64,000 nt of DNA from positions 6,155 through 70,154 of the forward strand of contig JAZDMG010000007.1 in assembly GCA_043801165.1 (NCBI GenBank), in the 5' to 3' direction. This document shows, one piece after another, positions 4,173-59,657 of this stretch. Below the pieces are notes generated by a model that had not been told where the DNA came from, made no database searches, and was given only the letters and a program-made list of their open reading frames with translations. Each line of letters opens with the position of its first letter. Within the stretch, counting starts at the first letter, position 1. Position numbers and translations under genes: made by a program. Source of the stretch: an archaeon (lineage in GTDB: Archaea; Nanobdellota; Nanobdellia; Woesearchaeales; SM23-78).

Positions 4173-4187
4173 CTATCAAGCCAAGAA

Positions 4188-14900: not shown

Positions 14901-15877
14901 GAGTGAAGAAGCACTGGGAAAAGCTTGGGAAGGTTCCAAAGAAGCTTGAGAAGAAGCTCATCTCAGATGAGGACCTGCAGGCAGATATTGCCAAGGCAAG
15001 GAAAGCAAGAGAGGATTATGAAGCAGAGACTAAGAAGAACAAGCCGGCAGAGGCAGCAAGCACAGAGAAGAAAGATGTGGATTTCTTCAGGAAGGATGTT
15101 GATCCTGACAAGATACTCAAGCTGGTCAATGGCATGCTGGTGATTAACATGGCCAGCCTCTACGATGAGATCGCTGCCATGAGGGATGATGATTATGATA
15201 AGCATGTGACTGCAGAAAAGAATGATTTCGCGAGATGGATTGAATTTGCAGTAGGTGACAAAGAGCTGGCCGACCATGTGCAGCTGGCATCTGGCAAGAA
15301 AGGGATACTCGATCTGCTTGACTTGAGAAAGACAAAGAAGCCATTGCCGAAGCTTGATCCTGAGCAGATCAAAAAGACCAAGGCAGCAGAGGCAGTGGCG
15401 AACCTCTCAAAGCCGCCTGAGGCGATAAAGCCAGCAGAAGCACCTGCTCAGGCAGCACCGACCATGCCTACTCAAACAGATGAAGCATCTACTCCAGCAG
15501 TGGCATCGATCGCTCAGGAGACATCAGCAACACCAATGGAATCCGCAAGTCATGAGTCAGTCCATGAATTCCAGTCAACAATAGAATCCACGACCGATGA
15601 GGAGGATTACTTCGTCAAGATGGTGGAACCAGAGAAGGTGCTCAGCCTGGACAATGGCATGCTTGTCATGAGCATCGAGAACCTTTACGATGATGTGAAT
15701 GCCATGAGCCAGGATGAATTCAATCATTATGTGAATGCGAGCAGCAATACGTTCGCAGATTGGATCAAGGACGCCGTAGGCGACAAGACACTAGCTGAGA
15801 GAGCTACCAAGGCGATGGAGAAAGAGAAGTTCATGAAGCTGCTTGAGATGAGGAAGAACAAGCAGAAAATCGATTGA
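11921..15877 (+). CDS. Membrane-tethered HerA/FtsK-like (COG0433/DUF87-type) P-loop ATPase with a ~600-aa glycosylated ectodomain and two C-terminal NDFxxWI modules
   Basis: 1318 aa. N-terminal anchor, ectodomain including a CarboxypepD_reg-like segment (GWVYGNVTDTNGNPVSDAIVEV), and a TM helix at nt ~13721-13810. Walker A GSTGSGKS at ~13975-13998 and Walker B VLFVYDEVHRLLP at ~14351. REFRKWGLGMLLISQ...NTEIQMR is typical of HerA-like ATPases. Coiled coil, then two ~70-aa repeats at 15095-15330 and 15623-15855. Confidence 0.8.
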   Translation: MIFHITTEGKNKMADAKNRREMMFRVLILLMIILSFKGLITVVEFLGYASLDSEGGTISEIDLTIKYDVASWSALYGTAWGVGWSQDWEFNMTGNTSLSQAMNEKHLLFNCFEAGIEHEIYASMVPSIDIDFASLTAATTAEYDAYMGIGSSSFYSATNTFTSIDTYQMGEQTINAPTTYTFVTGNTTPTSFATGILRDSSGNLVLVTKILQYPVTGFQGSRFNYQIMLPIPPETFQDYFVWSDPTDVCPEGQGTAPWEGWVYGNVTDTNGNPVSDAIVEVAGETDLSDNITGAYNITSEEGNKTIYAMKTGYRVYRGNVTILRGNGTVHNIVMVMEQPPNPPLTGIGPGIDAPGTQTQTGVDSEGIKTKDASYDLPPVMQRPKKIEGTDYIVSISEINRKIRLGNFLQEKVTLYSFKEKQANINFALEGNVSHLIKLDKESMMLSPRSSDFLTVTIFGVGEPGLYNGSLVMSGDFNATISITIEVLDKEKLPVEALLIDLEMNKKTVFPGDTIQFKTDLRNLLTDQQYPVALFYSVQSLDGKDTLWTYETNAFIRTSFSMLKSAMLPKNAKTGDYVLRVTASYLGLTSGTSTMFSITTPWYLVILFGSLRVWHGLLILLVIVLMGLAYWQIKKKIESKKKFHLKVEMAELPKPGARSIWVGKIAETDHKTYFNMESFMTHCIDAGSTGSGKSVSAQVIVEEMLQKGVAVIVFDPTAQWTGMLRKCDDKTMLALYPYFGMKPKDARPFNGNIRQVTNPREIIDIKKYVKPGEIQVFACHKLEPREMDIFVTNSIRQIFRANFGESRTLKVLFVYDEVHRLLPKFGGSGEGFLQIERGCREFRKWGLGMLLISQVLTDFVGTIKANINTEIQMRTRDEGDLERIKVKYGDDVLKSLVKATIGSGMIENPQYNRGKPYFTAFRPLMHSVQRLTDEEIEKYNEYNDKIDQMQFELEQLEKLGIDIFDLKLELKLATDKVKTGSFNMAQIYLEGLAPRVKKHWEKLGKVPKKLEKKLISDEDLQADIAKARKAREDYEAETKKNKPAEAASTEKKDVDFFRKDVDPDKILKLVNGMLVINMASLYDEIAAMRDDDYDKHVTAEKNDFARWIEFAVGDKELADHVQLASGKKGILDLLDLRKTKKPLPKLDPEQIKKTKAAEAVANLSKPPEAIKPAEAPAQAAPTMPTQTDEASTPAVASIAQETSATPMESASHESVHEFQSTIESTTDEEDYFVKMVEPEKVLSLDNGMLVMSIENLYDDVNAMSQDEFNHYVNASSNTFADWIKDAVGDKTLAERATKAMEKEKFMKLLEMRKNKQKID

Positions 15878-41589: not shown

Positions 41590-42609
41590 TTGATAAATGT
41601 ACTGGTTGTGGATGATTCTGCACTGATGAGAAAGATAATCTCAGATATGCTCAGCTCTGACAGCGAGATAAAGGTGATAGGCACTGCCGGAGATGGAAGG
41701 ATTGCCCTGGAAAAGATAAAATCCTTGACACCTGACGTCATAGTGATGGATGTCGAGATGCCGGAGATGGACGGCATCACTGCCCTGAAGAAGATAATGG
41801 AGGTCAAGCCGATCCCGGTGATAATCCTCAGCGCCCTGACAAAGGAAGGCTCTGACAAGACCATCGAAGCCCTAGAGGCCGGCGCGATAGACTTCATAAC
41901 CAAGCCATCAGGGATCATATCAATGGACCTCATCAGCGTGAAACAGGCGTTGATAGAGAAGGTAAAAGTCGCTTCAAAGGCTAGTGTCAAGAGAGTCGTA
42001 CGCACAGAGACCAAAAAATATCGCTTCAATCCTACAAGAAAGAAGATCATAGTCATAGCAAGCTCAACAGGAGGCCCCCAGACGCTGGAGTACCTGCTGA
42101 AAGAGATACCACGCAACATCCCTGCGCCGATATTGGTGGTGCAGCATATGCCCCCAGGCTTCACCAAGAGCTTCGCAGAAAGGCTCAGCAGGATTTGCGA
42201 GATAACCGTAAGAGAGGCTGTGGACGGCGACAGACTAGAGGACGGAGTGGCCCTTATAGCGCCAGGAGGGCTGCACATGATAGTTGAGGAGAAAGGCAAC
42301 GACGTCATGGTGCGAGTAATCAAAGAGCCTCCTGAGCTGGGAGTGGCTCCATGCGCCAACAAGCTCTTCCGATCAATAGCCCCAATATTCAGAGAGAACA
42401 CCATCGCAGTGGTGCTCACAGGCATGGGAAGCGATGGCACTGACGGCGCAAGGATGATAAAGAACGTCAGCGGCACAGTGATCGCAGAGGCTGAGGAATC
42501 ATGCATAGTCTTTGGGATGCCAAAAGAGGTAATAAACGCAGGGCTGGCAGATGAAATAGTCACACTAGATAAGATGGCTGTCGCACTGATACAGATCGTT
42601 GATATTTGA
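41590..42609 (+). CDS. cheB: Chemotaxis response regulator protein-glutamate methylesterase
   Basis: Receiver domain (VLVVDDS...VIVMDVEMPEMDG) plus methylesterase motifs (GGPQTL, VVQHMPPGFTKSFAERL, GMGSDGTDG, IVFGMPKE). TTG start. Confidence 0.9.
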   Translation: MINVLVVDDSALMRKIISDMLSSDSEIKVIGTAGDGRIALEKIKSLTPDVIVMDVEMPEMDGITALKKIMEVKPIPVIILSALTKEGSDKTIEALEAGAIDFITKPSGIISMDLISVKQALIEKVKVASKASVKRVVRTETKKYRFNPTRKKIIVIASSTGGPQTLEYLLKEIPRNIPAPILVVQHMPPGFTKSFAERLSRICEITVREAVDGDRLEDGVALIAPGGLHMIVEEKGNDVMVRVIKEPPELGVAPCANKLFRSIAPIFRENTIAVVLTGMGSDGTDGARMIKNVSGTVIAEAEESCIVFGMPKEVINAGLADEIVTLDKMAVALIQIVDI

Positions 42610-42681
42610 CAATTTGATCCAGCCAAACATTCAATAATCAAATTATCCAATCCATACCAGAAAAAAAGAGGTTGTACTTTC

Positions 42682-44640
42682 ATGGATATGTCTGAATACA
42701 AGCAGGCCTTCCTATTCGAGGCAAAAGAACACATAGACTCGCTTAATGAGAGCCTCATGTTGCTGGAGAAAGCACCTGATGACACCGAGACAATAAACAA
42801 GGCATTCAGGTCATTCCACACCCTCAAAGGCAATGCAGGAGCCATGGGCTATGTCAAGTACTCTGAACTCGCACATGCGCTTGAGGATCTGCTCTCAAGG
42901 ATCAGGGACCATAAGCTAAGCATCAGCAAGAATATAATGGACCTGCTGTTCGAAGGCTGCGACCTACTTGAGGAAGGGCTTGAGGAGATAAAGCACGATA
43001 ATCCGGAGAACATAAACGCCGAGAATGCGATCCAAGAACTTGAAAGGATATTAAAAAAAGATGAAGCCGTGACAACGGCGCCAGTCGGGCAGGAGCTGGC
43101 GCTCAGCGAACCAGATAAGGCGAGGATAGAAGAGCTGAGAAAGAGCAATGCGAACATATTCCGGGCGATAATTGTCTTTGAGCCAGGAAATCAATTAAGA
43201 GGAGCAAAATCAACCTTGCTCCTGAAGAATCTTAGGGAGAGCTCCACAATAATAAAGACTACCCCTGAAGAAGATCACATCCGCACAGGAAAATTCGAGA
43301 CAGACATAGAAGTGGTGCTCGCGACCAACAGGAACAAAGAAGAGATGAAAAACATAGTAAACCATATATCCGGGCTGAAGCACGTGTTCATGCTCGAGCT
43401 GGAAGAGGCCTATGAGAAGCCTGCGGAAACAAAGCACGAGGAGAAAGAGCTGGCGAAGAAAGCTATCACAGACCAGCACCAGAACGAGCTAATAAAGCAG
43501 ATCCAGAGCGTCAGAGTAGACATGCAAAAACTAGACCGGCTAGTAAACCTGGTCGGAGAGCTGCTGATAGGAAACATAAGGCTGCAGGACATCAACAAGA
43601 AACAGGACTATACAAATCTCAAGACAACCCTCTCAGGCCTTGACCGGCTGATACTAGAGCTGCAGGGAGAGGTAATGGAGATAAGGATGGTGCCCATAGG
43701 AGACATCTTCACAAAGTTCCTGAGGATGGTAAGAGACCTGGCAGGCAAAGAGAACAAGAAGATCAGCATGGCGATAGAAGGAGCGGAGATAAAATTTGAC
43801 AGGACAGTGCTTGATGAGCTTGGAGACCCGCTGGTGCATCTATTGAGGAACTGCGTCGATCACGGCATAGAACTTCCAGAGGAAAGGATCCGGCTCGGAA
43901 AACCAGAGGAAGGCACCATCAACCTAATCGCCAGAAGAGAGAAGAACAACGCAGTGATACAGATAATCGATGATGGCGCAGGCATAGACCCGCAAATCAT
44001 AAAGCAGCTGGCAATCAGCAAGGGAAAAGTCTCTGAGATGGAAGCAGCCAAGATGAGCGATCACGAACTCCAGATGCTGATATTCAAGGCGGACATGAGC
44101 ACCAACAAGATAGTCACAGAGGTATCAGGCCGCGGAGTAGGGATGGATGTGGTGATGACAAAGACAAGAGAGCTTGGAGGCTCAGTGGCACTAGAATCAG
44201 AACCAGGCAAAGGGACCACTGTGACCATGCAGCTTCCGCTGACGATCGCGATAATAAGCGTGCTGCTGGTCAAGGCAAAGGATGATATCTATGCCATCCC
44301 GCTAAACCTGATAGACCAGACAGTCGATATCCACAGGTCAGACATCAAAACGATAAGAGGGCATGAGCTCTTCCTTCTGAGAGGGCAGGAGATCCCGCTT
44401 TTCTGGCTCAGGGAACTGGTCGGGACAGGAGAGTTCGTGAAGCCAGACAAGATTACGGTGGTGGTGGTCAGCAAAGACTCCCAAAGGATCGGGATAGCCA
44501 TTGACACAATCGTATCCCAGCAGCAGATACTCATAAAGAGCCTTCAGGAGATAGTCAAAGGAGTCAGAGGCTGCTCAGGAGCGACAATATTAGGGGATGG
44601 AAGGGTAGCACTGATACTCGACATAGCAACATTGATATGA
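42682..44640 (+). CDS. cheA: Chemotaxis histidine kinase
   Basis: Hpt motif FRSFHTLKGNAGAMG, dimerisation segment, HATPase motifs (HLLRNCVDHGIE, DDGAGID, GRGVGMDVV), and a C-terminal CheW-like domain. Confidence 0.95.
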   Translation: MDMSEYKQAFLFEAKEHIDSLNESLMLLEKAPDDTETINKAFRSFHTLKGNAGAMGYVKYSELAHALEDLLSRIRDHKLSISKNIMDLLFEGCDLLEEGLEEIKHDNPENINAENAIQELERILKKDEAVTTAPVGQELALSEPDKARIEELRKSNANIFRAIIVFEPGNQLRGAKSTLLLKNLRESSTIIKTTPEEDHIRTGKFETDIEVVLATNRNKEEMKNIVNHISGLKHVFMLELEEAYEKPAETKHEEKELAKKAITDQHQNELIKQIQSVRVDMQKLDRLVNLVGELLIGNIRLQDINKKQDYTNLKTTLSGLDRLILELQGEVMEIRMVPIGDIFTKFLRMVRDLAGKENKKISMAIEGAEIKFDRTVLDELGDPLVHLLRNCVDHGIELPEERIRLGKPEEGTINLIARREKNNAVIQIIDDGAGIDPQIIKQLAISKGKVSEMEAAKMSDHELQMLIFKADMSTNKIVTEVSGRGVGMDVVMTKTRELGGSVALESEPGKGTTVTMQLPLTIAIISVLLVKAKDDIYAIPLNLIDQTVDIHRSDIKTIRGHELFLLRGQEIPLFWLRELVGTGEFVKPDKITVVVVSKDSQRIGIAIDTIVSQQQILIKSLQEIVKGVRGCSGATILGDGRVALILDIATLI

Positions 44641-44768
44641 ACAGGAGATGGAAAACATATCGATAGTTTTAAAAAACCAAGAACCAAACAATGCTTTGGT
44701 TGGCCACAGGCCTAACCATAAACTGATAGCAGAGGAAAAGACAGAGAAAACAGGAAAGGAGGAATGAA

Positions 44769-45131
44769 ATGATGAAAAAAATAATGATAGTCGAGGATTC
44801 CAACCTGATGACCGCAGTCATTACCAATTTTGTGAAGAAAGAGGGCGACTATGATATAATCACGGCTAAAAATGGCGAAGAAAGCGTGACAAAATACAAA
44901 GAGCAAAAACCAGACCTGGTGTTCATGGACATAAAGATGCCTGGAATGGACGGCCTGGCTGCGCTCGAGATCATAAGGAAGATGGACCAATCAGCAAAGG
45001 TAGTCATGTGCACAGCCCTAAAAGAGGCTGAACAAGAGGATAGGGCAAAGAAACTCGGCGCAAAAGGATACATAAAGAAGCCTTTCAGCAGGGAAGACAT
45101 AGTCAAGGCACTGAAGGATAACCTGAGATGA
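44769..45131 (+). CDS. cheY: Chemotaxis response regulator CheY (copy 1)
   Basis: 120-aa single receiver domain with an intact acidic pocket (VEDS, FMDIKMPGMDG), T/S position and KKPF lysine. Confidence 0.9.
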   Translation: MMKKIMIVEDSNLMTAVITNFVKKEGDYDIITAKNGEESVTKYKEQKPDLVFMDIKMPGMDGLAALEIIRKMDQSAKVVMCTALKEAEQEDRAKKLGAKGYIKKPFSREDIVKALKDNLR

Positions 45132-45206
45132 GATGGAAATGCCATTTGCCACTAGCCATCAACTATAATCAATAATAGACTTTCATGAAAAACAGGAGGT
45201 GAAACA

Positions 45207-45566
45207 ATGAAGATATTGATCGTCGATGATTCTGCGTTCATGCGAAACATGATCAGGAACATACTGAAAGAGGGGAACCATGAGATAAGCGAAGCTGCTA
45301 ACTATGACGAGGCGATTAAAGCATATCAAGAGAAAAAACCCAACCTGGTGTTCCTTGATATTGTGATGCCCGGGAAGAGCGGCGTCGACGCCCTCCGCGA
45401 CATAAAACAGATGGACAAAGACTCATTCATAGTGATGTGCACATCAATAGGCGGCCAGCAGAAAGTGATCGATGACTCGGTGGCTGCAGGAGCGAACGAC
45501 TTCGTAATAAAACCATTCAAGCCAGAGGACATACTGCGAATCGTGGCTTCCGCAGATAAGAAATGA
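45207..45566 (+). CDS. cheY: Chemotaxis response regulator CheY (copy 2)
   Basis: 119-aa receiver domain with VDDS, FLDIVMPGKSG, MCTS and IKPF. SD AGGAGGTGA. Confidence 0.9.
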   Translation: MKILIVDDSAFMRNMIRNILKEGNHEISEAANYDEAIKAYQEKKPNLVFLDIVMPGKSGVDALRDIKQMDKDSFIVMCTSIGGQQKVIDDSVAAGANDFVIKPFKPEDILRIVASADKK

Positions 45567-45700
45567 TCCTGGACCTAGGATCAGACCGAATCAAATCTGG
45601 CATCCAAAGATGGGAACCACACAGAAAAATTCTCCAAGAGATGATATGGCCGTAATAAATAGGTTCATGATTGCAAAAGACATTACCAAGGTGATCCAAC

Positions 45701-46330
45701 ATGACCAACACACAGCTGACCTCTAGCGAAATAGACGCTCTAAGCGAGATGGGCAACATAGGCACAGGAAACGCTGCCACCGCCCTGTCCAAGTTCATAA
45801 ACAAGAATGTAGACATGAACATACCGGAGACTAAATTCGTGCCTCTGAAAGATTTCTCAAAGCTGGTCGGCGGCCCTGAAAAGATAATCGTCGGGGTATA
45901 TCTTCAGATATCAGGGGATATAGAGGGCGAATCATTGTTCATATTCCCGCGCGAAGGAGCGCTTGAGATGATAGATATCCTGATGGGCAAGCCACCAGGA
46001 ACCACCAAGATAGTGAACGAGATGGATGAATCTGCCTTCAAGGAGATGACCAACGTGATAACAGGAGCATTCCTGAACTCAATGGCAAACATGTTCGATG
46101 TGAAGCTCGTGCCTTCGGTGCCGCACATAGCGACAGACATGGCCCAGACAGTGCTAGACTTCATACTCATAAAGGTGAGCCGGTCAGCTGACAGCATGCT
46201 CTGCGTCAAGACCACGATCAATGTAGAAGGCCATCGCATAGATGGAGAATTCCTGGTGCTGTTCGATGAGAAATCATTGAAGAAGATACTCAAGACATTG
46301 CATCAGAAGTATGGAGAGGCGATAAGATAG
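45701..46330 (+). CDS. cheC: CheY-P phosphatase CheC (copy 1)
   Basis: Duplicated CheC motifs: EIDALSEMGNIGTGNAATALS and DESAFKEMTNVITGAFLNSMA. Confidence 0.85.
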   Translation: MTNTQLTSSEIDALSEMGNIGTGNAATALSKFINKNVDMNIPETKFVPLKDFSKLVGGPEKIIVGVYLQISGDIEGESLFIFPREGALEMIDILMGKPPGTTKIVNEMDESAFKEMTNVITGAFLNSMANMFDVKLVPSVPHIATDMAQTVLDFILIKVSRSADSMLCVKTTINVEGHRIDGEFLVLFDEKSLKKILKTLHQKYGEAIR

Positions 46331-46343
46331 AACGAGTGACAAG

Positions 46344-47183
46344 ATGAGCGAGATAATAGTTGAGATGGGAGGCATAGAGATAGGCCGAGAGAATGACACG
46401 CTGCTCTCGCTGGGGCTCGGCTCATGCGTAGGAGTGATAATATATGACCCCCTAAGAAGAATAGCTGGCCTGGCCCATGTGATGCTCCCTAGCAGCCTAG
46501 AACACGATTTTCCTGTTATTGAGAAAAAAGCGCTGATAGCTGATCGGGACATCATCACACGGAGGCTGATAAAAGATATAATCACATCTGATTTCGCGGT
46601 CATCCTGGAATCCCAGGAAAAAGATGAGACCATCAGCATCTATCGAAAGCTCAAGCCTCAACTGTCATTCATAAGCGCGTTCCTCCCTCCGACAAATGGC
46701 CTTGATGCAATCCACACCTTGCTGAGCATAGACCAAGACATCAACGCAATAGTCATCAGCCCAAGCATAGAATCAGGCACACTTTCACATTATCTAAGCA
46801 ACGGAGCAAGAGAGGTCATACTTGCCCCCTTCACCGAGCTCAAGATAAAGAGCTGCGTTGATTATGTAATCCATAAGGACCTTCTGAAATTCGCGGATAG
46901 GGCTGTGCCAACCCTTATCGGCAAGATGATGAACAGCGGAGCTGAGAAGAGCAACCTGGTGGCTAAGATAGTTGGCGGGGCGCATATGTTCCCGACCCTG
47001 ATGGATGAGGAAGTAATGAACATAGGAAAGCATAATATCGAGGCAGTGAAGAGAATCCTGCATGAGTTCGGCATCAGAGTAACCTCTGAAGAGACTGGCG
47101 CTAGCATAGGCAGGACTGTCATCTTCGAGGTGAACACAGGCATCATGAAAATAAGAACAAAAGACGGCACGAGAAGTGTCTAA
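46344..47183 (+). CDS. cheD: Chemoreceptor glutamine deamidase CheD interrupted by a ~130-aa receiver-like insertion
   Basis: The N-part GLGSCVGVIIYDP...GLAHVMLPSS and the C-part KFADRAVPTLI...KIVGGAHMF...NIGKHNIEAVKRIL...GRTVIFEVNTGIMKIRT match canonical ~160-aa CheD. Residues 52-181 (nt 46497-46886) are extra. Confidence 0.8.
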   Translation: MSEIIVEMGGIEIGRENDTLLSLGLGSCVGVIIYDPLRRIAGLAHVMLPSSLEHDFPVIEKKALIADRDIITRRLIKDIITSDFAVILESQEKDETISIYRKLKPQLSFISAFLPPTNGLDAIHTLLSIDQDINAIVISPSIESGTLSHYLSNGAREVILAPFTELKIKSCVDYVIHKDLLKFADRAVPTLIGKMMNSGAEKSNLVAKIVGGAHMFPTLMDEEVMNIGKHNIEAVKRILHEFGIRVTSEETGASIGRTVIFEVNTGIMKIRTKDGTRSV

Positions 47184-47211
47184 TCAGGAGCAAAATTAGA
47201 GAGGCTAAACA

Positions 47212-48036
47212 ATGGATGTCAAGGTGACCGACAAGGAGAACTGGACTGCTCTGAAAATGAAGATAAAAGAGCTCAAGATATTCAACCCTGAGAATTACGC
47301 AGAGACTTTCCTAAGCAGGAGGATAGAATGCAGGCTCAGGGCCACATGCCTGAACTCATATTCAGAATATGCTCAGAAGCTCACTAGCTCTGAGAAAGAG
47401 AGGGAAGCCCTCTGCAAGGACCTGACGATAAACGTCACCTCATTCTTCAGGGATACGAACACATACCAGGCCATCAAGGAAGAGGTCATGCCTTTCATAG
47501 TGAAGACAAAAGAGGAAACAGGGCAGAACACCATAAACGTATGGTCTGCAGGAGCAGCATCAGGAGAAGAGGCCTATTCACTAGCAATCCTTTTCAAAGA
47601 GGTGCTCGGCACAAGGCTGGCCAGGTTCAAACTAAGCATCATCGGAACAGACATAGACCGTGAGGCCATTGCAGAAGCAAAGCAGGGGGTCTATAATGAG
47701 CAGCAGCTGAGGGAGACCGACCCGGCCTACATTAAGAGATATTTCGAGAAAACAGGGAACTCATATAGGATAACCGATGATATCAAGAAGATGGTGAGAT
47801 TCGAGCAAGGGGACATACTCGGTGCCTCAAAACCAAGAGATATAGACCTCCTCCTGTGCAGGAACACTGTTATTTATTTCAACGCAGAGACAAAAGCAAA
47901 GCTGTATGCTGATTTCTACAACATAATGAAAAGGAACGGCTTCCTGATACTGGGCAAGACTGAGATCCTGCTGGGAAACGCCAGAGAGCTCTTCCAGATA
48001 TTCAACAGCAGCGAAAGGGTATACTGCAAAGAATAG
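47212..48036 (+). CDS. cheR: Chemotaxis protein methyltransferase
   Basis: Motifs TSFFRD, VWSAGAASGEEAYSLAILF and LLCRNTVIYF. Confidence 0.9.
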   Translation: MDVKVTDKENWTALKMKIKELKIFNPENYAETFLSRRIECRLRATCLNSYSEYAQKLTSSEKEREALCKDLTINVTSFFRDTNTYQAIKEEVMPFIVKTKEETGQNTINVWSAGAASGEEAYSLAILFKEVLGTRLARFKLSIIGTDIDREAIAEAKQGVYNEQQLRETDPAYIKRYFEKTGNSYRITDDIKKMVRFEQGDILGASKPRDIDLLLCRNTVIYFNAETKAKLYADFYNIMKRNGFLILGKTEILLGNARELFQIFNSSERVYCKE

Positions 48037-48085
48037 GGCGCTCTGTCTGATGTTCTAGTTCCAGGACTAAGAAAATAGCAAAATC

Positions 48086-48093
48086 TTTATAAA
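48086..48093 (+). promoter_or_regulatory. TATA box (TTTATAAA) in the cheR-mcp gap: possible internal promoter
   Basis: Exact TTTATAAA within the 222-bp intergenic gap, ~90 nt upstream of a strong SD and micro-ORF. Confidence 0.35.
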
Positions 48094-48258
48094 CCGCACA
48101 GCACATGATAGGATATAACATATCAAGCAGTTTGATATCAAACGAGAAAAATCAGACCATTTAAAAAAAGAGGTGGGTGATGGTCAAGAGAGATGGTTAT
48201 TTGCCTAGATATAATCTCTTAGACATACTTCTCGGAAAAATCAGCTCCAAAAAGGAAA

Positions 48259-48621
48259 ATGATAGATAACTACCTAGCGAAATGTGAGTGCGGATTCAAG
48301 GCAGAGGTAAGCTATGGACGCGAAGGAGAAGAGAAGATACACGAGGTGTACTCCTGCCCTAAATGCAAGAACCTTTTCACATTGCGGTTCAAGGAGAAGC
48401 TAAAATGCCCAAAATGCAAAGGAGAAAAACTCTGCCAATACAGCCCTAACAAGAAAGACAACATCGCCTATTACAGGAGGATGCTCAAGATCGGAGCGCT
48501 GCATAAGAGAGGAATGGAAGAGCTTGTGACGTTCTGGAAAAAGATTTATGATACTGAATGCCCGAAGTGCGGCAAGAAGAAGATGCATTGGACAATCAAA
48601 GAGAAAAAAAAGATAACCTAA
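48259..48621 (+). CDS. Small zinc-ribbon protein (four Cys pairs) inside the che operon
   Basis: 120 aa with Cys pairs CECG, CPKCKN, CPKCKG and CPKCGK. No named family recognised. Confidence 0.6.
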
Positions 48622-48632
48622 GAGGTGGACTC

Positions 48633-49775
48633 ATGAAAATGAAGAAGATAAGCATCAAATGGCAGCTGATGATGATATGTTTATTAATAGTGTCTTTGCC
48701 AGTAATCATCTTCGGGATTATTAATTACGATTCTGCGAAGAGCCTGACCCTAATCATAGCGTCAGCATCTATCATCCTAGGACTATTGGTCGCATACATC
48801 TTCGCACATAATCTCACAAGTCGCTTCAAGAGCCTAGTGGATAAGATCAACGCCGTCTCCATGGGAGACCTGACGCTGAAGCTCTCAGAATCCGGTGAGT
48901 TCCAGGCCAGCAGGAACGAGATGGACCAGCTGGTTAATGCCCTTGGCATGATGGTCGACAACCTGAGAGGATTGGTGTCAAAGATAGCGAAGAGCACAGA
49001 GAGCACTGCAGCATCAGCAGAAGAGCTCTCGGCATCGTCAGAGGAAATCAATGCAGCCATGCAACAGATATCAACAACCATCAATGAGATAGCCAACGGG
49101 GCCCAGATACTAAGCAAGAACTCAAGCGAGGTCTCAAACAAGAGCAGGCTGGCGCAGGAGAGCTCAAGGACCGGCTCAAAGGCAGGGTTGACTGTCAGGG
49201 AGAAGATGACCCAAATCGACACGACCACCAAGCTGACCGCTGAAAAAGTCAGATCACTAAGCGACACATCTGAGAAGATAGGAGACATAATCGAGACGAT
49301 TAACAACATATCAGAGCAGACCAACCTGCTTGCACTGAACGCAGCCATCGAGGCAGCAAGGGCAGGAGATGCAGGAAGAGGGTTCGCAGTTGTCGCTGAT
49401 GAGGTCAGGAAGCTGGCAGAGCAGAGCCAGAAGAGCACAGGAACCATCAGAGGGCTGATAAATGGCATCCAGCAGGGGATAGGCCAGGCAGTCCTGAGCA
49501 TGCAGGAAAACACCAAGCAGGTGCAAGAAGGCTCAGGCTCAGTGAACGAAGCCCTTGCCTCGTTCGAGGAGATCCCTGTCATCGTGGAACAGCTAAACAA
49601 GGCCATCAGCGAGATAAGCGCCATCTCAGAAGAGAACGCAGCAGGAAGCGAAGAGGTATCATCCTCTGTAGAACAGGTCACATCATCGATGGCTCAGGTC
49701 TCGACTGCTGCCCAGAAGCTCAGCAAAGAGGCTGATGAGCTCAAGCAGGTAACCAAGCAATTCAAATTCAGCTAG
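48633..49775 (+). CDS. Methyl-accepting chemotaxis protein with a TM hairpin and no extracellular sensor domain
   Basis: SD AGAGGTGG before the ATG at 48633 (ORF open from 48558). Two TM helices separated by ~5 residues, a HAMP-like segment, and the conserved hairpin tip [38 protein letters not shown]. Confidence 0.9.
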
Positions 49776-49833
49776 GCGGCGGATAGCAGCCAACAAACAG
49801 AAACTTGGCAACTAGGGATATTGAGGTGAGCTA

Positions 49834-50331
49834 ATGCCCATTGGAGAATTAAAAAGAGGAGCTGAGAAAGAGCAGCAGATGGTAATCTTTACAATTGGAA
49901 AGGAAGAGTTCGGAGTCGATATAAGCGAGGTGAGGGAGATCATCCGCATGGAGCCGATAACCAAGATTCCTCACACGCCCGAATACATCAAAGGAGTCAT
50001 CAACCTGCGGGGGGGAATAATCGTCGTCATAGACCTGGCGATGAAGCTCAGCATCCCGCACAGGAATGAGGACAACAACACAAGGATCATAGTCATCGAG
50101 GTAAACAACATGACCATAGGAATGGTCGTGGACTCTGCGACAGAGGTTCTCAGGATAAAAGAGAGCCAGATACAGCCAGCACCTGCCATAATAACCGAGA
50201 AAGTCGAGGCAGGTTACATCCAAGGGGTAGGAGTCCTTGGCGAGCGACTTCTGATCCTGCTTGACCTGACCAAGGTGCTTGAGTCAAGAGAAATCGAAGA
50301 GCTTAAAAAGACACAGGCAAATAGAAAATAA
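49834..50331 (+). CDS. cheW: Chemotaxis coupling protein
   Basis: 165 aa containing FGVDISEVREIIRMEPITKIPHTPEYIKGVINLRGGIIVVIDL. Confidence 0.9.
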   Translation: MPIGELKRGAEKEQQMVIFTIGKEEFGVDISEVREIIRMEPITKIPHTPEYIKGVINLRGGIIVVIDLAMKLSIPHRNEDNNTRIIVIEVNNMTIGMVVDSATEVLRIKESQIQPAPAIITEKVEAGYIQGVGVLGERLLILLDLTKVLESREIEELKKTQANRK

Positions 50332-50341
50332 ATATTGCAAA

Positions 50342-50968
50342 ATGGATAATCTCACCGATCTGAGCGACTTCGAGCTGGATGCACTCAAAGAAACCGCAAA
50401 CATAGGCACAGGGCACGCTTCAATAGCGCTCTCTGCGCTGATGAACAGGAAAGTGAACATCAACATCCCCCAGACCAACGTGGTCTCTGTGCACGAAGTA
50501 TACGCCCGGATAGCCAGCGCGAATGAGACATTAGTCGGCATCTACAGCAAGGTCAAGGAAGGGATGAGCGGGAACGTCGTGATGCTGCTGCCCATAGACT
50601 GCGCATTCAAGCTGATAAACCACCTCAACCCAGCAGAAGGCGGCCTGCAGAAAGATTCTCTCAAGGACAAGGACATCATAATATTGAAAAAACTCGGCTC
50701 AGTGCTGTACTCAGCATACCTGAGCGCACTGGCGAACTTCTTCGAGCAGAACATAATATTCCAGACCCCAAGCGTGGTATCCACTCTAGGGGATTCAATA
50801 ATAGATTTCATACTGGTGCAGATAGGAGAGAAGGAGAAGGTGTTGCTGATAACGATAAACTTTGATGTGGAAGGGACAGACATCGACGGCAATTTCGTAC
50901 TGCTTTTCACGCTGAACTCGCTCTCCCCGCTGCTGCAGAGGCTCAAGACCAAGATGGGGATGGCCTGA
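50342..50968 (+). CDS. cheC: CheC-family phosphatase (copy 2)
   Basis: ELDALKETANIGTGHASIALS plus a second, degenerate motif KKLGSVLYSAYLSALA. The ATG at 50342 follows the cheW stop (ORF open from 50279). Confidence 0.8.
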   Translation: MDNLTDLSDFELDALKETANIGTGHASIALSALMNRKVNINIPQTNVVSVHEVYARIASANETLVGIYSKVKEGMSGNVVMLLPIDCAFKLINHLNPAEGGLQKDSLKDKDIIILKKLGSVLYSAYLSALANFFEQNIIFQTPSVVSTLGDSIIDFILVQIGEKEKVLLITINFDVEGTDIDGNFVLLFTLNSLSPLLQRLKTKMGMA

Positions 50969-51510
50969 TGAACGTCGACATCAACGAAGAGTTCAAGACC
51001 AACAAGACCATTCTCATCGTCATACCGATAAAGGAGTATTCTGAGACCATGATGAACCTGAATGGCCAGCTCAACAGCTCATTCAACAGGATAACCTACG
51101 TAAGCCTGAACAAGCTGATAACCCCGCTGAGGAGAAGCTTCGAGGAAAACCACCTTGATCTCAGCAAGTTCTATTTCGTCGACGCCATAACCAAGACAGC
51201 CATCCCAAATCCTCCTGAGATCATCAACTGCGCATACGTGCCGGCGCCGAACGACCTCACCAAGCTGAGCATCCAGATAACCAAGTCGCTCCAGACATTC
51301 GACCCCGACTGCATAATCTTCGACAGCCTGTCGACGCTGCTGATCTACGAGGACAACACCATAACGAGCCAGTTCGTCCATGCCCTGGTGAACAAGGCAA
51401 ACGCCTTTGGCGTCAGGATAATCTTCACCTGTCTCAAGGGCGACAAGGAGAAGCAGCTGGCGAGGGAGATGAGCCTGATACTCGATAAGGTTATTGGGAT
51501 AGACGAGTGA
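50968..51510 (+). CDS. Degenerate KaiC/RecA-like protein lacking a P-loop; last gene of the che operon
   Basis: 180 aa; its start overlaps the cheC2 stop. It aligns by eye with the KaiC-like domains of 55037-57004 and 58563-59657: NKTILIV vs NSTILVS, PDCIIFDSLSTL vs PDRIVVDSLSAI, GVRIIFTC vs GATSFLIS. The GxxGxGKT site is replaced by IPIKEYSE. Confidence 0.6.
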   Translation: MNVDINEEFKTNKTILIVIPIKEYSETMMNLNGQLNSSFNRITYVSLNKLITPLRRSFEENHLDLSKFYFVDAITKTAIPNPPEIINCAYVPAPNDLTKLSIQITKSLQTFDPDCIIFDSLSTLLIYEDNTITSQFVHALVNKANAFGVRIIFTCLKGDKEKQLAREMSLILDKVIGIDE

Positions 51511-55036: not shown

Positions 55037-57004
55037 TTGGATAACAGGACGAAGTCAAAGTATCTTGGAGTGCTCCTACAGACGGTGCTCAAGGTAGATG
55101 ACGCCATGTTCGGCCAGAGAGTGAGCCCTGAGAAGCATGACTACGCAGACTGGATAGCAAAGAACATCAAAGACGAAGAGCTGGCTAGCCAGCTGAGGCC
55201 ATTCATCCAGAAAGATGCCATCGTCAAGTTCCTGCAGGAAAAGATCGCAGAGCTGAGCCAGGATGCGGCAGCAGCACAACCAACACTCCGACCGGCGCCT
55301 GAAAATCCGACAGCAACAGTACAGATCAAGCAGATGGATGGTAAGATTAAGGCGAAATACCTCGGAGTGCTGGTGCAGACGATTCTGAAGATGGACGAGG
55401 CTACATTCAGGATAAGGGTCAGCCCTGAGAAGCATGACTACGCAGACTGGATAGCAAAGAACATCAAAGACGAAGAGCTGGCAGAGGAGCTGCGCTCAAT
55501 CAGGCATAGGCAGAGCGTGCTTGAGTTCCTGGCTGACAAGATCGCAGAGCTGGGCGGGGAAGCGCCCAACATACCGATGCCATCGACGCCAGCAATAGCA
55601 CTGAAAACAGCACAGGCAATGCAGCCGCCAGAGAGAACAGATGAACCAATACACGACCTGATGCCTACTACGATGCAGTCTCATGAAGAGACAAAGCCAA
55701 AGCAAGAACAAGAGATAGATTATCTCAGAGACATAAACGAAGATCTCCATTTCGTGCTTCCAAACGGAAAGACCATCGGAAGCCTGCCGGAGCTGGCCGA
55801 GCTGATGCCTGCAATGGATGATGCGCATTTCAGCGCGCACGTGACCCCTCACAAGAATGATTTCGCAGCCTGGATCTACCACTCGATAAAAGACGAGGAG
55901 CTGGCGAACAGCATCGGGAATGTCAAGGACAAGCAGCAGATTATGGAACTGATCAAGGCAAGGATCACTGAATTGGCAGGCAAGAGCATAGTCACCGATA
56001 GCCTTGAAGCAATGAAAAAGCAGGGAGCTCAGGCACCGGCACCACAGAAGAAGGATGAAAAGAAAGAAGAAAGAGAAAAGGAAGAAAAGAATCATACAAA
56101 ACCAGCAGAAAAACCAGCTGTCGAGAGACCATACCTTGCTGCCAAACCAAAAGAGGAAAAAATAGACCTGATGAATCTCTCAGCCATCGAGATACTAAAG
56201 AAACTAGGCTTGATCAGGGACAACACCCAGTTCCTGGCTTTGGAAGAGGAGATAAGCGAGATCAGGAAACAGAGAAAGACTATCGCAACAGGAGTGCCTG
56301 GCTTTGATGACATGATCGGAGGAGGGATCCCGGTAAATTCCACAATACTAGTATCCGGAGGGCCTGGAAGCGGAAAGACAACTTTCTGCATACAGATGCT
56401 TGGCTGGGCCGCAGAGCAGGGAGAGAAGTGCCTATTCCTGACATTTGAAGAGACCGAAGAGCAGCTCATAGAGCATATGGAGGCATATGGCCTGAATCCC
56501 AAAAAATATCTGGAAAAAGGCACACTGATGATCCAGAGACAAGATCCTTTCAAGATATCAAGGATGGTCGAGGCATTGCTCGCCCATGCAAGAGGAGAAC
56601 TGCTGATAAACATAGATGAGATAATCGACATACTGCCAAGGGGATACAAGCCTGACCGGATCGTGGTTGATTCGCTTTCTGCGATATCAGCAGCATTCTC
56701 TGAATCCAACACAGCATACAGGGTGTATGTCACCAAGCTGATGAGCCTGCTCCAGAAGACAGGCGCCACCTCGTTCCTGATAAGCGAGGTGCAGGGCATA
56801 GAGAACATAGGCCACGGCCTTGTGGAAGAGTTCCTGGCTGATGGAGTGATAGTGTTCTATAACCTGCAGAAAGGGAACATAAAGCAGAGCGCCCTGGAGG
56901 TCCTGAAGATGAGAGCAGTGGACCATGAGAAGAGGATAGTGCCGTTCGAATTCGTGAAAGGAAGAGGGCTCGTGGTCTACCCGCTTGAGAGGACATTCAT
57001 GTGA
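55037..57004 (+). CDS. KaiC-like (RecA-superfamily, COG0467-type) ATPase with three N-terminal NDFxxWI modules
   Basis: 655 aa with a TTG start after the SD AAGAGGTG. C-terminal domain: GVPGFDDMIGGGIP...LVSGGPGSGKTTFCIQ (Walker A), IVVDSLSAI (Walker B), LKMRAVDHEKRIVPFEF. Three modules at ~55052-55255, 55349-55552 and 55745-55975. Confidence 0.85.
   Translation: MDNRTKSKYLGVLLQTVLKVDDAMFGQRVSPEKHDYADWIAKNIKDEELASQLRPFIQKDAIVKFLQEKIAELSQDAAAAQPTLRPAPENPTATVQIKQMDGKIKAKYLGVLVQTILKMDEATFRIRVSPEKHDYADWIAKNIKDEELAEELRSIRHRQSVLEFLADKIAELGGEAPNIPMPSTPAIALKTAQAMQPPERTDEPIHDLMPTTMQSHEETKPKQEQEIDYLRDINEDLHFVLPNGKTIGSLPELAELMPAMDDAHFSAHVTPHKNDFAAWIYHSIKDEELANSIGNVKDKQQIMELIKARITELAGKSIVTDSLEAMKKQGAQAPAPQKKDEKKEEREKEEKNHTKPAEKPAVERPYLAAKPKEEKIDLMNLSAIEILKKLGLIRDNTQFLALEEEISEIRKQRKTIATGVPGFDDMIGGGIPVNSTILVSGGPGSGKTTFCIQMLGWAAEQGEKCLFLTFEETEEQLIEHMEAYGLNPKKYLEKGTLMIQRQDPFKISRMVEALLAHARGELLINIDEIIDILPRGYKPDRIVVDSLSAISAAFSESNTAYRVYVTKLMSLLQKTGATSFLISEVQGIENIGHGLVEEFLADGVIVFYNLQKGNIKQSALEVLKMRAVDHEKRIVPFEFVKGRGLVVYPLERTFM
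55124..55185 (+). repeat. 62-bp perfect intragenic direct repeat, copy 1
   Basis: agccctgagaagcatgactacgcagactggatagcaaagaacatcaaagacgaagagctggc is identical to 55421-55482, 297 bp downstream. Confidence 0.9.
55421..55482 (+). repeat. 62-bp perfect intragenic direct repeat, copy 2
   Basis: Identical to 55124-55185 and in frame (99 codons apart). Confidence 0.9.
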
Positions 57005-58494
57005 ACAAAGGAAAGCCAAGATACGGAGAGAGAACAGCTGGAGCAATAGCTCTCTTCATGCTTCTCATGATAATGATGCTAGCGATGCTGGCAGGCATAG
57101 ACCTGGCCGCAGCAAAAGAGGCAGAATCAAACACCACGCAGACTGACGCGAGCCTGCTGATAACAAAGCTCGAGAGGAACATCACATCCCTGAAAGAGAG
57201 AGGATTCAACACCCCGCGCCTTGACGACGCACTTATGGATGCGAAAGCAAGCTATGCTGACAGGAAATTCGACCAGGTGCTAAGGCTGTACAGCGAGAGC
57301 ATTCTCACAATCTCAAAGATGATGTACGTATCAAGCGAGATCAACATGACATCAATGCTGCTGGATGAGGCAAAGAAGAGAGAGCTCAACATCTCTGAAT
57401 CCATGGGCCATTACACTCTCAGCCTCAGCGATTTCAGGAATAACAACCTTGATGCCGCCCAGAAAGAGATAGCGCAAAGCAAGGAGCTGGTGACAGACCA
57501 GCTGATGACAGAATCCACAATGATAATAGCTGACCTGAAAGAGCTTGCTGCGGCTCTGGCCAGCACAGGGATAAACGCGAATGCTGTCAACAGGACCACG
57601 GCTGATATCCTGGCCGCAGAGAGATCAAAAGATTTCATAAGACTCTTCATCCTGGCCAGCAGGATCTCTGAGATGAACACCTCGATAGCTGGGCTGCTGA
57701 CGATCAAGGAAAAGATGAACCGGCTTGAGGCAGATGGTTATAGCATCAATAGGATAAATGATACCATTGCTGAGCTGGAGAGCCTTCTTGATGCAGGAGA
57801 GTACACCCAGCTGAGCAAACGCTACAACGAGACCATATCACTGATAGGAAAGATATATTCTGTCGATAAAGGCATCAAGAAGACTGAAGCAGGGATTGGC
57901 TCTCCTGAGCTGGCAGGGATAGACCTGACCGAGGCATCAGAGCTGCTCAACACAAGCAAGAGCGAGTTCGATCTTGAGAACTATGAGAAGTCAGAGGACT
58001 ACCTTGCTAGAGCAAAGGCTTCGCTCGCAGAGGCAGAGCAGGCAAACATATTCGCCACCATACTAAACAAGGCAAAGATGAGATTTGACCCGATATCATT
58101 CCTCAAGAAGAACTGGTTGTCGCTCATATTGGCAATACTAATCGGAGGGATTGTGATAAAGGTCGGAGGCTTGTTCCTAGTCTTAAAAAAGAGCGAGCAG
58201 AAGCTTGCTAAGCTCAAGAAAGAGGAAGAAGCAATCACAGAGCTGATGATAAAGCTCCAGGAGGAATATTTCAAGGAGAAAATAATCGATAAGGATACCT
58301 ACGCAGCTGAGAACAATAGCTTCGAGAAGAGATTGACACAGATCAGCGAAGAGATCCCGCTGCTGATTATCAGGATAAAAGAGAAACGTGAAAAGCTTGC
58401 CAAGATGAGAATGTCAAAACACAAGACTGCAGATGACCACAAGGCAACAGATCACAGCAAGGCAGAGACTGACAGCACATCAACGAACAAATAA
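57001..58494 (+). CDS. Stalk-TM-tail membrane protein (helical ectodomain, TM, cytoplasmic LQxxYF motif)
   Basis: 497 aa. The GTG start overlaps the KaiC-like stop (GTGA). N-terminal anchor AIALFMLLMIMMLAMLAG, all-helical ectodomain, and second TM WLSLILAILIGGIVIKVGGLFLVL. Tail ITELMIKLQEEYFKEKIIDKDTY at nt ~58243-58280. Confidence 0.7.
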   Translation: MNKGKPRYGERTAGAIALFMLLMIMMLAMLAGIDLAAAKEAESNTTQTDASLLITKLERNITSLKERGFNTPRLDDALMDAKASYADRKFDQVLRLYSESILTISKMMYVSSEINMTSMLLDEAKKRELNISESMGHYTLSLSDFRNNNLDAAQKEIAQSKELVTDQLMTESTMIIADLKELAAALASTGINANAVNRTTADILAAERSKDFIRLFILASRISEMNTSIAGLLTIKEKMNRLEADGYSINRINDTIAELESLLDAGEYTQLSKRYNETISLIGKIYSVDKGIKKTEAGIGSPELAGIDLTEASELLNTSKSEFDLENYEKSEDYLARAKASLAEAEQANIFATILNKAKMRFDPISFLKKNWLSLILAILIGGIVIKVGGLFLVLKKSEQKLAKLKKEEEAITELMIKLQEEYFKEKIIDKDTYAAENNSFEKRLTQISEEIPLLIIRIKEKREKLAKMRMSKHKTADDHKATDHSKAETDSTSTNK

Positions 58495-58562
58495 GAACAT
58501 TTTTATACATCACGACCAAGAGAAGGTAACGGGACAATTGGGTTGAAGGAAAGAGGAAGAGT

Positions 58563-59657
58563 GTGAACAATAATACAGATAATGTGGAAAGTCAGAATGC
58601 AAATCCGCCATTTTTCTTAAAGAGCGGAAAAAAGATAAGCGAGCTCAATGAGCTGAAGGATTATCTCTTAACAATCCAGCCAGGCGAGTTTCACCACCAT
58701 GTCACTTCTGAAAAGAATGACTTCGAGAGCTGGATAAGGCACGGCCTCAAAGAAGAAGAATTAGCCAATAAGGTAATAAACGTCAAAATCCCGGAAGAGC
58801 TAATCGCCATAATCAAACAATTCCTGAACGCCGGCTTAGAACAGGCCAAAGAGCAGGTAAAACCAGATGAAACAGCCAGCGACAGCAAAACAATCAGCGT
58901 AATCAGCGAGTTCATACCAGAACAGACCTATATCAAGACAGACGTCCCTGGATTCGATGAGCTGATAACCAACGGCATTCCAAAAGAGAGCGCAGTGCTT
59001 GTATGCGGAGGACCAGGAACTGGGAAAACCACCTTCTGCCTCAATCTCATATGCAATGCAGCGAAAAAGGGAAGCAAATGCCTCTACCTAACATTTGAAG
59101 AAGACATAATAAACCTCAAGAGGCACATGAAGAACTTCGGATGGGACGGAGCTTCAAAGGGAGCGGCAGAGAACATGATAGTGAAGAAGATGCAGCCGTT
59201 CGACATAAGCCGGTCAGTCGAAGCACTCCTGGCAAAAGCCAGCGGCGAGCTCACCATAGAATTGGATGAAGTAGAAGGAGTCATACCTTCTGGCTTCCAC
59301 CCAGACATAATCATACTTGACTCGCTCTCGGCAGTAGCTGCCGCATTCTCAGGAAAAGAAGAAGGATATAGGATCTACATAGAGCAGCTTTTCTCCCTTT
59401 TCAAGAAGATTGGCGCAACCTCGTTCCTGATAACAGAGATAGAGCAGGACACCACCAAGTACAGCAAGAGCGGGATAGAAGAATTCCTGGCAGATGCGGT
59501 GATCGTCTTCTACAACATAAGAAGCAAGAACATACGCATAAACGCCCTTGAGATACTCAAGGCCAGAGGAACTCCCCACCAGAAGAAGATCGTCCCATTC
59601 AAGATAGTCACAAACAAAGGAATCGTGGTCTACCCGACAGAAGAAGTCTTTACCTAG
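58563..59657 (+). CDS. KaiC-like ATPase with one N-terminal NDFxxWI module
   Basis: 364 aa with a GTG start after the SD AAGAGGAAG. Module HHHVTSEKNDFESWIRHGLKEEELANKV. KaiC-like domain with GGPGTGKTTFCLN, IIILDSLSAV and LKARGTPHQKKIVPFKI. Confidence 0.85.
   Translation: MNNNTDNVESQNANPPFFLKSGKKISELNELKDYLLTIQPGEFHHHVTSEKNDFESWIRHGLKEEELANKVINVKIPEELIAIIKQFLNAGLEQAKEQVKPDETASDSKTISVISEFIPEQTYIKTDVPGFDELITNGIPKESAVLVCGGPGTGKTTFCLNLICNAAKKGSKCLYLTFEEDIINLKRHMKNFGWDGASKGAAENMIVKKMQPFDISRSVEALLAKASGELTIELDEVEGVIPSGFHPDIIILDSLSAVAAAFSGKEEGYRIYIEQLFSLFKKIGATSFLITEIEQDTTKYSKSGIEEFLADAVIVFYNIRSKNIRINALEILKARGTPHQKKIVPFKIVTNKGIVVYPTEEVFT

Follow-up and report, generated by a model that had tools for sequence, protein, structure and literature searches.

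A CheD homolog with an internal CheY-like pseudo-receiver domain in a woesearchaeal chemotaxis operon

The DNA considered here is a 64,000-nucleotide stretch (hereafter the window) of contig JAZDMG010000007.1 (GCA_043801165.1, positions 6,155 to 70,154 of the forward strand) from an ultra-small archaeon of the DPANN group (Woesearchaeota type). It carries a chemotaxis operon in which an unbroken open reading frame (ORF) at 46344-47183 (+), starting 13 nucleotides past the stop codon of cheC, encodes a 279-residue protein. Pfam assigns both CheD and Response_reg to this protein and an AlphaFold2 model agrees; we refer to the gene as cheD-REC, for a CheD with an internal insert of receiver fold. 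The N-terminal CheD segment (residues 1-51; 46344-46496, +) contains the catalytic residues Cys28 (46425-46427, +) and His45 (46476-46478, +), the codons of which were verified. The C-terminal segment (residues 182-279 and the stop codon; 46887-47183, +) contains Met215-Phe216 (46986-46991, +), which match the residues M101/F102 with which Bacillus subtilis CheD binds CheC and receptors. Between the two segments lie 130 residues (52-181), encoded at 46497-46886 (+), exactly the coordinates given in an initial annotation of this DNA. They consist of a linker (52-61), a (βα)5 receiver (62-176) and a short helix that leads into the CheD helix at 184-197.

The two outer segments together make up a complete CheD. 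Thermotoga maritima CheD (chain 2f9z_C) aligns to the protein in two pieces, with chain residues 8-52 matching residues 7-51 and chain residues 61-150 matching residues 182-275 (E = 2e-23). Because the alignment resumes at chain residue 61 after residue 52, the insert replaces an eight-residue loop. The Pfam CheD model matches residues 180-272 at 99.3 bits (cut-off 25). The cut-offs of the NCBIfam CheD equivalogs were all missed (best 129 bits versus the 251 required by PRK13490) because the insert splits the match. Cys28 and His45 are invariant among the 42 members of the aligned family described below and are kept in insert-less CheDs as well, while Phe216 is present in all 42 members and Met215 in 37. 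The fold, catalytic residues and partner-binding motif of the window protein thus place it in the CheD family. With Cys28/His45 and Met215-Phe216 intact it also looks catalytically competent, and deamidase/methylesterase activity is predicted.

Within the insert, Pfam Response_reg was recognized at residues 64-170, scoring 33.8 bits in the full protein and 35.6 bits in the insert alone (gathering score 30.2). The top PDB match of the insert was T. maritima CheY (E = 6e-11, 29 % identity, 48 bits) and its top NCBIfam match was CheY_Halo (E = 6.5e-11; 42.6 bits, cut-off 200). Receiver classes other than CheY gave matches that were orders of magnitude weaker in both databases. With CheYs at the head of both lists, the insert is a CheY-class receiver rather than a generic one.

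The AlphaFold2 model of the protein, built on a 72-sequence alignment, has a mean pLDDT (predicted local distance difference test) of 92.8 and a pTM (predicted template-modeling score) of 0.91. In it the insert forms five strands (β1 62-66, β2 86-90, β3 107-111, β4 135-139, β5 157-160) alternating with five helices (α1 70-80, α2 93-103, α3 119-129, α4 144-152, α5 165-176). The insertion site is in the loop between the strand of His45 and the first CheD helix, seven residues past that strand, and α5 continues through a short helix to this first CheD helix (184-197). When the model was compared with the PDB by Foldseek, CheD 2f9z_C ranked first (target-normalized TM score 0.88), followed by T. 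maritima CheY structures (TM 0.89-0.90, root-mean-square deviation 1.5-1.9 Å). The modeled CheD fold closes around an independently folded receiver, and the high pTM suggests a defined geometry between the two domains. The initial annotation, which had worked from the letters only, described a CheD split at residues 52-181 by a CheY-like insert and placed β1, β3, β4 and β5 by eye. The Response_reg score above the gathering threshold and the modeled (βα)5 receiver bear out the split, the placement of the four strands agrees with the modeled secondary structure, and the expectation that the CheD core would close around a separately folded insert holds in the model.

Residue states at the former active site of the receiver were taken from an alignment of the insert with the two CheYs of the operon, the CheB receiver and T. 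maritima CheY. The column of the phospho-acceptor Asp is occupied by Ser111, the last residue of β3 within FISAFLPP and the first residue of an SAFLPP motif (residues 111-116; 46674-46691, +; codons verified). The initial annotation had read this position as Ala, but Ala112 is the residue that follows it (D+1). In β1 and the β1-α1 loop (KALIADRD; 46527-46550, +), Asp69 is conserved and the Mg2+-binding acidic pair is incomplete, with Asp67 kept and Arg68 in place of the second acidic residue. The Thr/Ser position is Ser139 and is followed by Pro140 at T+1 (46758-46763, +). In β5 and the loop after it (VILAPF; 46815-46832, +), Val158 takes the place of the aromatic switch residue, Ala161 that of the Lys, and Pro162 is invariant. 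Three of the four catalytic elements of a receiver (the Asp, the acidic pair and the Lys) are therefore missing from the insert and one (Thr/Ser) is present, so that "response regulator", the name that NCBI gives to two homologs, is unfit. Having lost the Asp, the Lys, one acidic residue and the aromatic switch residue, the insert is, judged by these residues, a pseudo-receiver. The earlier proposals that the β5 Lys is replaced by Ala and that the domain would be non-phosphorylatable were correct on the first count and probably so on the second, given Ser111, Ala161, Arg68 and Val158 at the positions of the phosphorylation machinery.

This architecture is not confined to the window. A homology search returned 17 clusters of proteins (271-293 residues, 42-100 % identity) with the same combination of CheD and Response_reg, and about 17 further clusters, at 31-43 % identity, came from an exhaustive phmmer scan of 1.84 billion representatives. 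A search with a profile of the family ranked 30 insert-bearing clusters before a score gap, from 256 to 221 bits, that separates them from the first insert-less CheD. The aligned family has 42 members, namely an 18-member subfamily with the SAFLPP motif, which includes the window protein, and 24 divergent members. All named members belong to Candidatus Woesearchaeota, Nanoarchaeota or Nanobdellota, and the nearest insert-less CheDs are likewise from Woesearchaeota/Nanoarchaeota. The closest relative, encoded at locus L007, is 88 % identical to the window protein, and the taxonomically named ones are about 50 % identical. A scan of one genome per GTDB species for the peptide pattern [VI][ST][LF][IV]SAFLPP hit only two Woesearchaeota metagenome-assembled genomes; this pattern detects SAFLPP-type members alone and says nothing on divergent members in other lineages.

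Some 42 clusters share the insertion point. The underlying NCBI, JGI, ENA and Logan assemblies are independent of one another and include contigs of 0.2-1.5 Mb, and the recurrence of the insertion among them rules out misassembly or chimerism. A recent copying of a neighboring cheY into cheD was also rejected, the insert being 21-25 % identical (27-40 bits) to the CheYs of the operon versus 29 % (48 bits) to T. maritima CheY. Response_reg was recognized in 21 of the 33 aligned sequences (28 of the 33 being insert-bearing), and the receiver of many divergent members falls below Pfam recognition. One divergent member (P0279, 31 % identity) nevertheless models as the same two-domain fold (pLDDT 92.1, pTM 0.87), with Foldseek TM scores of 0.94 (CheD) and 0.85 (T. 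maritima CheY). Real CheYs score at least as well against the window insert as the divergent inserts do. In a neighbor-joining tree of the CheD core only (149 columns), monophyly of the insert-bearing CheDs was recovered in 0 of 200 bootstraps and insert-less DPANN CheDs were interleaved among them; it is the shared insertion point alone that may speak for a single origin of the insertion. These results indicate that the CheD with an inserted receiver is a real, conserved and lineage-specific architecture. The initial annotation had left the spread of the insertion among homologs to be settled and supposed that the fusion was undescribed. The insertion proved to recur in some 42 clusters, and the literature searched, mostly without subscription journals, held no description of a receiver-bearing CheD, which is absence of evidence only.

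The former active site differs between the two parts of the family. Among the 24 divergent members the phospho-site column holds D in 12, E in six, S in three, N in two and A in one, and the acidic pair is retained in some clades (e.g. ADDEE in P0279 and AEED in P0281). The β5 Lys is present in one of the 42 members. Within the SAFLPP subfamily, S111, A112, L114, P115, P116 and Pro162 are each found in 18 of 18 members, as is F/Y at 113, and SAFLPP is thus fixed among sequences that are as little as 42 % identical. Position 67 is D/E in all 18, position 68 is variable and position 69 is D in 16; Ser139 (S/T in 17), Pro140 and Val158 are each present in 16. Of the structural elements, the loops β3-α3 (0.89) and β5-α5 (0.79), on the face of the former active site, are the best conserved, and the least conserved are α1, the connecting loops and α4 (0.36-0.48, with α4 at 0.47). 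The lineage-specific fixed residues, Ala66, Asp69, Ser111, Ala112, Phe113, Pro116, Pro140, Thr164 and Glu165, all ring the former active site.

We estimated the ratio of nonsynonymous to synonymous substitution rates (dN/dS) by the Nei-Gojobori method from the window gene and that of L007, which share 85.8 % nucleotide identity. The insert gave 0.117 (40 synonymous and 23 nonsynonymous differences) and the two CheD segments 0.037 and 0.115, so that the insert equals the C-terminal half. Values for cheC, cheA, cheB, cheR, cheW and cheY were 0.05-0.11. The insert is therefore under purifying selection, like the other che genes. It nonetheless diverges faster than the CheD core (mean pairwise identity 0.40 versus 0.53-0.60). 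We are almost certain of the overall description, i.e. a competent-looking CheD with a CheY-like pseudo-receiver insert, maintained by purifying selection in a family so far found only in Woesearchaeota/Nanobdellota.

The genes around cheD-REC all lie on the forward strand. Upstream lie cheB (41590-42609), the product of which has a receiver and a CheB_methylest domain by Pfam, cheA (42682-44640; Pfam, ORF) and two canonical cheY genes (44769-45131 and 45207-45566; Response_reg at 103.9 and 94.3 bits, respectively), both with the Asp, Thr and Lys visible in the alignment. The 209-residue cheC product (45701-46330; Pfam CheC/CheX), encoded directly upstream of cheD-REC, has both phosphatase motifs ([DS]x3Ex2Nx22P) intact, at residues 12 and 111. 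With cheC adjacent to cheD, intact CheC motifs and two CheYs, the gene set of a CheC/CheD/CheY-P system of the B. subtilis type (CheY-P being phosphorylated CheY) is complete in the window. Downstream follow cheR (47212-48036; Pfam), an ORF for a Zn-ribbon protein (48259-48621; Pfam/NCBIfam), a gene for a methyl-accepting chemotaxis protein (MCP; 48558-49775; Pfam), cheW (49834-50331; Pfam), a second, cheC-like gene (50279-50968; Pfam/NCBIfam) and a small DUF7504/KaiC-like gene (50968-51510; Pfam/NCBIfam) that ends the operon. The order from cheR to DUF7504 is the same in L007, where the CheA orthologue has Hpt, P2, dimerization, HATPase and CheW domains. That cheD-REC replaces CheB was rejected, given the canonical CheB at 41590-42609 and the CheB genes in the loci of relatives. 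Neither the window nor the fetched loci yielded a CheF (DUF439) or archaellum gene.

In 10 of 10 independent loci, insert-bearing or insert-less, cheC lies directly 5' of cheD. The seven independent SAFLPP-subfamily loci all read cheY-cheY-cheC-cheD/REC-cheR with a single upstream cheC, and the order cheY-cheY-cheB-cheA-cheC-cheC-cheD-cheR is found in the insert-less Woesearchaeota loci L010 and L011 and in the divergent insert-bearing locus L012. Gene order thus tracks CheD type across the window and L001-L012, in a sample that is small and phylogenetically non-independent. In L012 a stand-alone Hpt protein of 124 residues is encoded just upstream of cheA (4151-4525).

Several further features of the window were noted. 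The MCP is short (405 residues), with two apparent transmembrane segments and almost no sensor domain, and its ORF overlaps that of the preceding Zn-ribbon protein. A 688-residue dCache MCP stands at the same position in L007, and this difference between close relatives indicates that the receptor gene has been exchanged between them. Beyond the end of the operon, 55037-59657 encodes two larger KaiC/ArlH-like ATPases with DUF5752; cheC-like, DUF7504 and KaiC/ArlH-like genes recur 3' of the che genes in L001, L007 and L011, and might possibly form an output or regulatory module. A 1318-residue protein encoded at 11921-15877 combines a HerA/DUF87 ATPase core with a DUF5752 segment, as found in the KaiC-like ATPases past the che operon. 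Directly 5' of the operon (18754-41478) are a giant ORF of 6131 residues (DUF2341, Big_13, MG2) and one of 1426 residues. The same pair stands ahead of the che genes in L001 and L007 (6018/6061 and 1495/1425 residues), and it may represent a surface or adhesion apparatus tied to the che system. At the edge of the window, an rve-family integrase (1635-2615) beside an AAA_14/DUF4143 ATPase (together 358-2615, the ATPase at 358-1569) is likely a mobile-element remnant.

What the insert might do can be considered in light of the known roles of CheD. In adaptation they depend on whether CheD is bound to receptors or to CheC and on the effect of CheY-P on this partition. In B. subtilis, CheD shuttles between these two partners: receptor-bound CheD activates CheA, CheC competes with the receptors for the same CheD surface, and M101/F102 of CheD mediate binding to both (PMC3513319). 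The affinity between CheC and CheD is raised more than 7-fold by CheY-P (dissociation constant from 3.95 to 0.55 µM) and lowered about 2-fold by unphosphorylated CheY (PMC3513319). The CheD of Halobacterium salinarum interacts, as a hub, with CheF1/CheF2, CheC2/3 and CheB, and CheF binds CheY (PMC3579733).

The interpretation that we favor, tentatively and as a possibility more than a probability, is that the insert acts as a phosphorylation-independent surrogate of CheY in the CheC/CheD/CheY-P adaptation loop. A CheY-like domain tethered on CheD would engage CheC, or the site on CheC that receives CheY-P, together with the CheD core. The insert would in this way set or bias the affinity of CheC for CheD and change the amount of CheD that is free for receptors, and it might compete with genuine CheY-P. 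Because the N- and C-termini of a receiver sit opposite its active-site face, an inserted receiver points that face away from its attachment. The initial annotation had suggested a CheY mimic that could act on CheC, CheA-P2 or the output device, and such a mimic would be compatible with the adjacency of cheC, the intact phosphatase motifs of CheC and the conserved Met-Phe of CheD. Points in favor of a surrogate are also the CheY class of the insert, its purifying selection, the peak of conservation in the loops at the former active site, and the recurrence of a CheD-receiver pairing in the unrelated protein P0220, described below.

Several considerations weigh against a surrogate of this kind. 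Contact of the insert with CheC, or with any partner, is putative, and no co-variation of CheC with the insert was seen, both phosphatase motifs being intact with or without it. The conservation of the loops is in part that of a generic receiver scaffold (LP..NG, PF). The residues of the former active site vary across the family (S, D, E, N or A at the phospho-site), and this variability disfavors one fixed binding mode for all members. Finally, CheC normally prefers phosphorylated CheY, and a lock of the insert in an active-like state would be hypothetical.

Alternatively, the pseudo-receiver might be a docking module that binds the P2 or P1 domain of CheA, as CheY and the CheB receiver do, and that would either concentrate CheD at receptor arrays or compete with CheY/CheB for the kinase, in both cases without phosphorylation. 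The CheA orthologues of these loci do have a P2 domain and the insert is of the CheY class. Together with the start of α1, its conserved loops β1-α1 and β5-α5 also make up the receiver surface touched by a histidine phosphotransfer domain. Nevertheless, α4, which is part of the α4-β5-α5 face that binds P2, is among the least conserved elements (0.47), canonical CheDs reach receptors with no such module and the binding is only proposed, and we regard docking to CheA as unlikely, though worth keeping in view.

The position of the insert, seven residues past the strand of catalytic His45, raises the different possibility of a CheB-like gate, in which the receiver acts intramolecularly to govern how accessible the CheD active site is. 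CheB offers a precedent for a receiver that controls a receptor-modifying enzyme, and the pTM values of 0.91 and 0.87 suggest a defined inter-domain geometry in the two models. Asp at the phospho-site in 12 of the 24 divergent members, some of them with an acidic pair (AEED in P0281, ADDEE in P0279), would fit a version of the gate in which Asp-retaining members are perhaps phosphorylated by CheA and the subfamily of the window protein is either frozen or operated by a partner or by modification of Ser111. Yet the Lys is absent from 41 of the 42 members, the window protein also lacks the Asp and the aromatic switch residue, and the operon already provides an ordinary phospho-regulated CheB. 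Moreover, with the termini opposite the active-site face, the α4-β5-α5 output face would not obviously lie over the CheD cleft. A gate therefore seems to us distinctly unlikely.

It could also be that the insert has no function at all, i.e. that a single insertion brought in a receiver whose function was then lost, and that it is retained as a tolerated passenger only since clean excision is rare and the folding of CheD has come to need it. The faster evolution of the insert relative to the core (0.40 versus 0.53-0.60 identity), the failure of Pfam to recognize it in many divergent members and the variable phospho-site column would all be expected of a passenger. A dN/dS of 0.117, on par with the C-terminal half of CheD, would not be, nor would a surface-loop SAFLPP that is fixed in 18 of 18 sequences down to 42 % identity. 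Insert-less CheDs of this lineage also show that losing or lacking the insert is viable, and we consider a passenger very unlikely.

A coupling to output, with the insert binding the protein that receives CheY at the archaeal motility apparatus (CheF or an analogue) and bringing CheD and CheC to the motor, would parallel the H. salinarum hub, where CheD contacts CheF1/CheF2 and CheF binds CheY (PMC3579733); with neither CheF (DUF439) nor archaellum genes detected in the window or the fetched loci and with α4 poorly conserved, it is highly improbable. We give practically no credence to an assembly or annotation artefact, in which a chimeric contig or a frameshift put a cheY fragment into cheD, as nothing but the unusual length of the protein suggests one, the frame is uninterrupted, some 42 clusters that stem from separate assemblies and pipelines repeat the architecture, and the insert is just 21-25 % identical to the neighboring CheYs.

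To our knowledge, how CheC, CheD and CheY-P are arranged in their complex has not been observed, and a CheY-like domain welded into CheD is a natural experiment that predicts physical proximity of CheD and CheY. Taken further, the insertion could be read as a Rosetta stone for this complex: CheY would sit beside CheD on CheC, in Woesearchaeota the built-in constitutive surrogate would replace or compete with the CheY-P input and so rewire the sign or gain of the feedback, and the receivers that retain Asp and an acidic pair may be phosphorylated by CheA. We consider this full reading distinctly unlikely. Should CheA phosphorylate such members, CheB would no longer be the only phospho-regulated enzyme that modifies receptors, CheD being the second. 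The same phylum offers paired CheDs with and without the insert, and the series from Asp-retaining to Ser-fixed members lets the change from receiver to pseudo-receiver be studied. A 2022 comparative study described DPANN archaea as lacking chemotaxis systems (PMC9680633). The complete operon at 41590-51510 (cheB, cheA, two cheY, cheC, cheD/REC, cheR, MCP, cheW and cheC-like) documents chemotaxis genes in DPANN, contrary to that report.

The window protein resembles several known systems and differs from each. It shares with canonical CheDs (T. maritima 2F9Z and B. subtilis) the fold (TM 0.88-0.94), the Cys/His residues, the GGAxMF motif and the pairing of cheC with cheD, but is 279 rather than about 160 residues long, a 130-residue receiver standing in place of the loop of 8-10 residues after the His strand. 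T. maritima CheY (1TMY/4IGA) is the best match of the insert in both sequence and structure; CheY, however, stands alone, whereas the insert is embedded in CheD and has Ser111, Ala161, Arg68 and Val158. As in CheB, a CheY-like receiver is covalently joined to a receptor-modifying adaptation enzyme. The receiver of CheB lies at the N-terminus, can be phosphorylated and connects through a linker to an unrelated CheB_methylest domain, in contrast to the internal and degenerate receiver of cheD-REC.

CheV (CheW plus receiver) is similar in that a protein of the adaptation branch is fused to a CheY-like domain. In a further fusion, P0220 (L013, 6001-6885), the receiver is C-terminal to CheD and retains the canonical DD, D and K, and the gene of P0220 adjoins cheX in a bacterial-looking che cluster. 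In both CheV and P0220 the domains are joined end to end and the phospho-acceptor site is intact, whereas in cheD-REC a receiver with a dead site has been inserted into another domain. The occurrence of the unrelated P0220 fusion beside a gene of the CheC/CheX family indicates that coupling of CheD to a receiver arose more than once. A tandem CheD-CheD protein (P0137, 344 residues) was also noted. Pseudo-receivers in general are receiver folds that lack the phospho-Asp and serve as protein-interaction modules. The insert is like them in that it keeps the fold, has lost the catalytic residues and stays under purifying selection, and differs in its setting, as none was described inside CheD, or inserted in a chemotaxis enzyme, in the literature searched.

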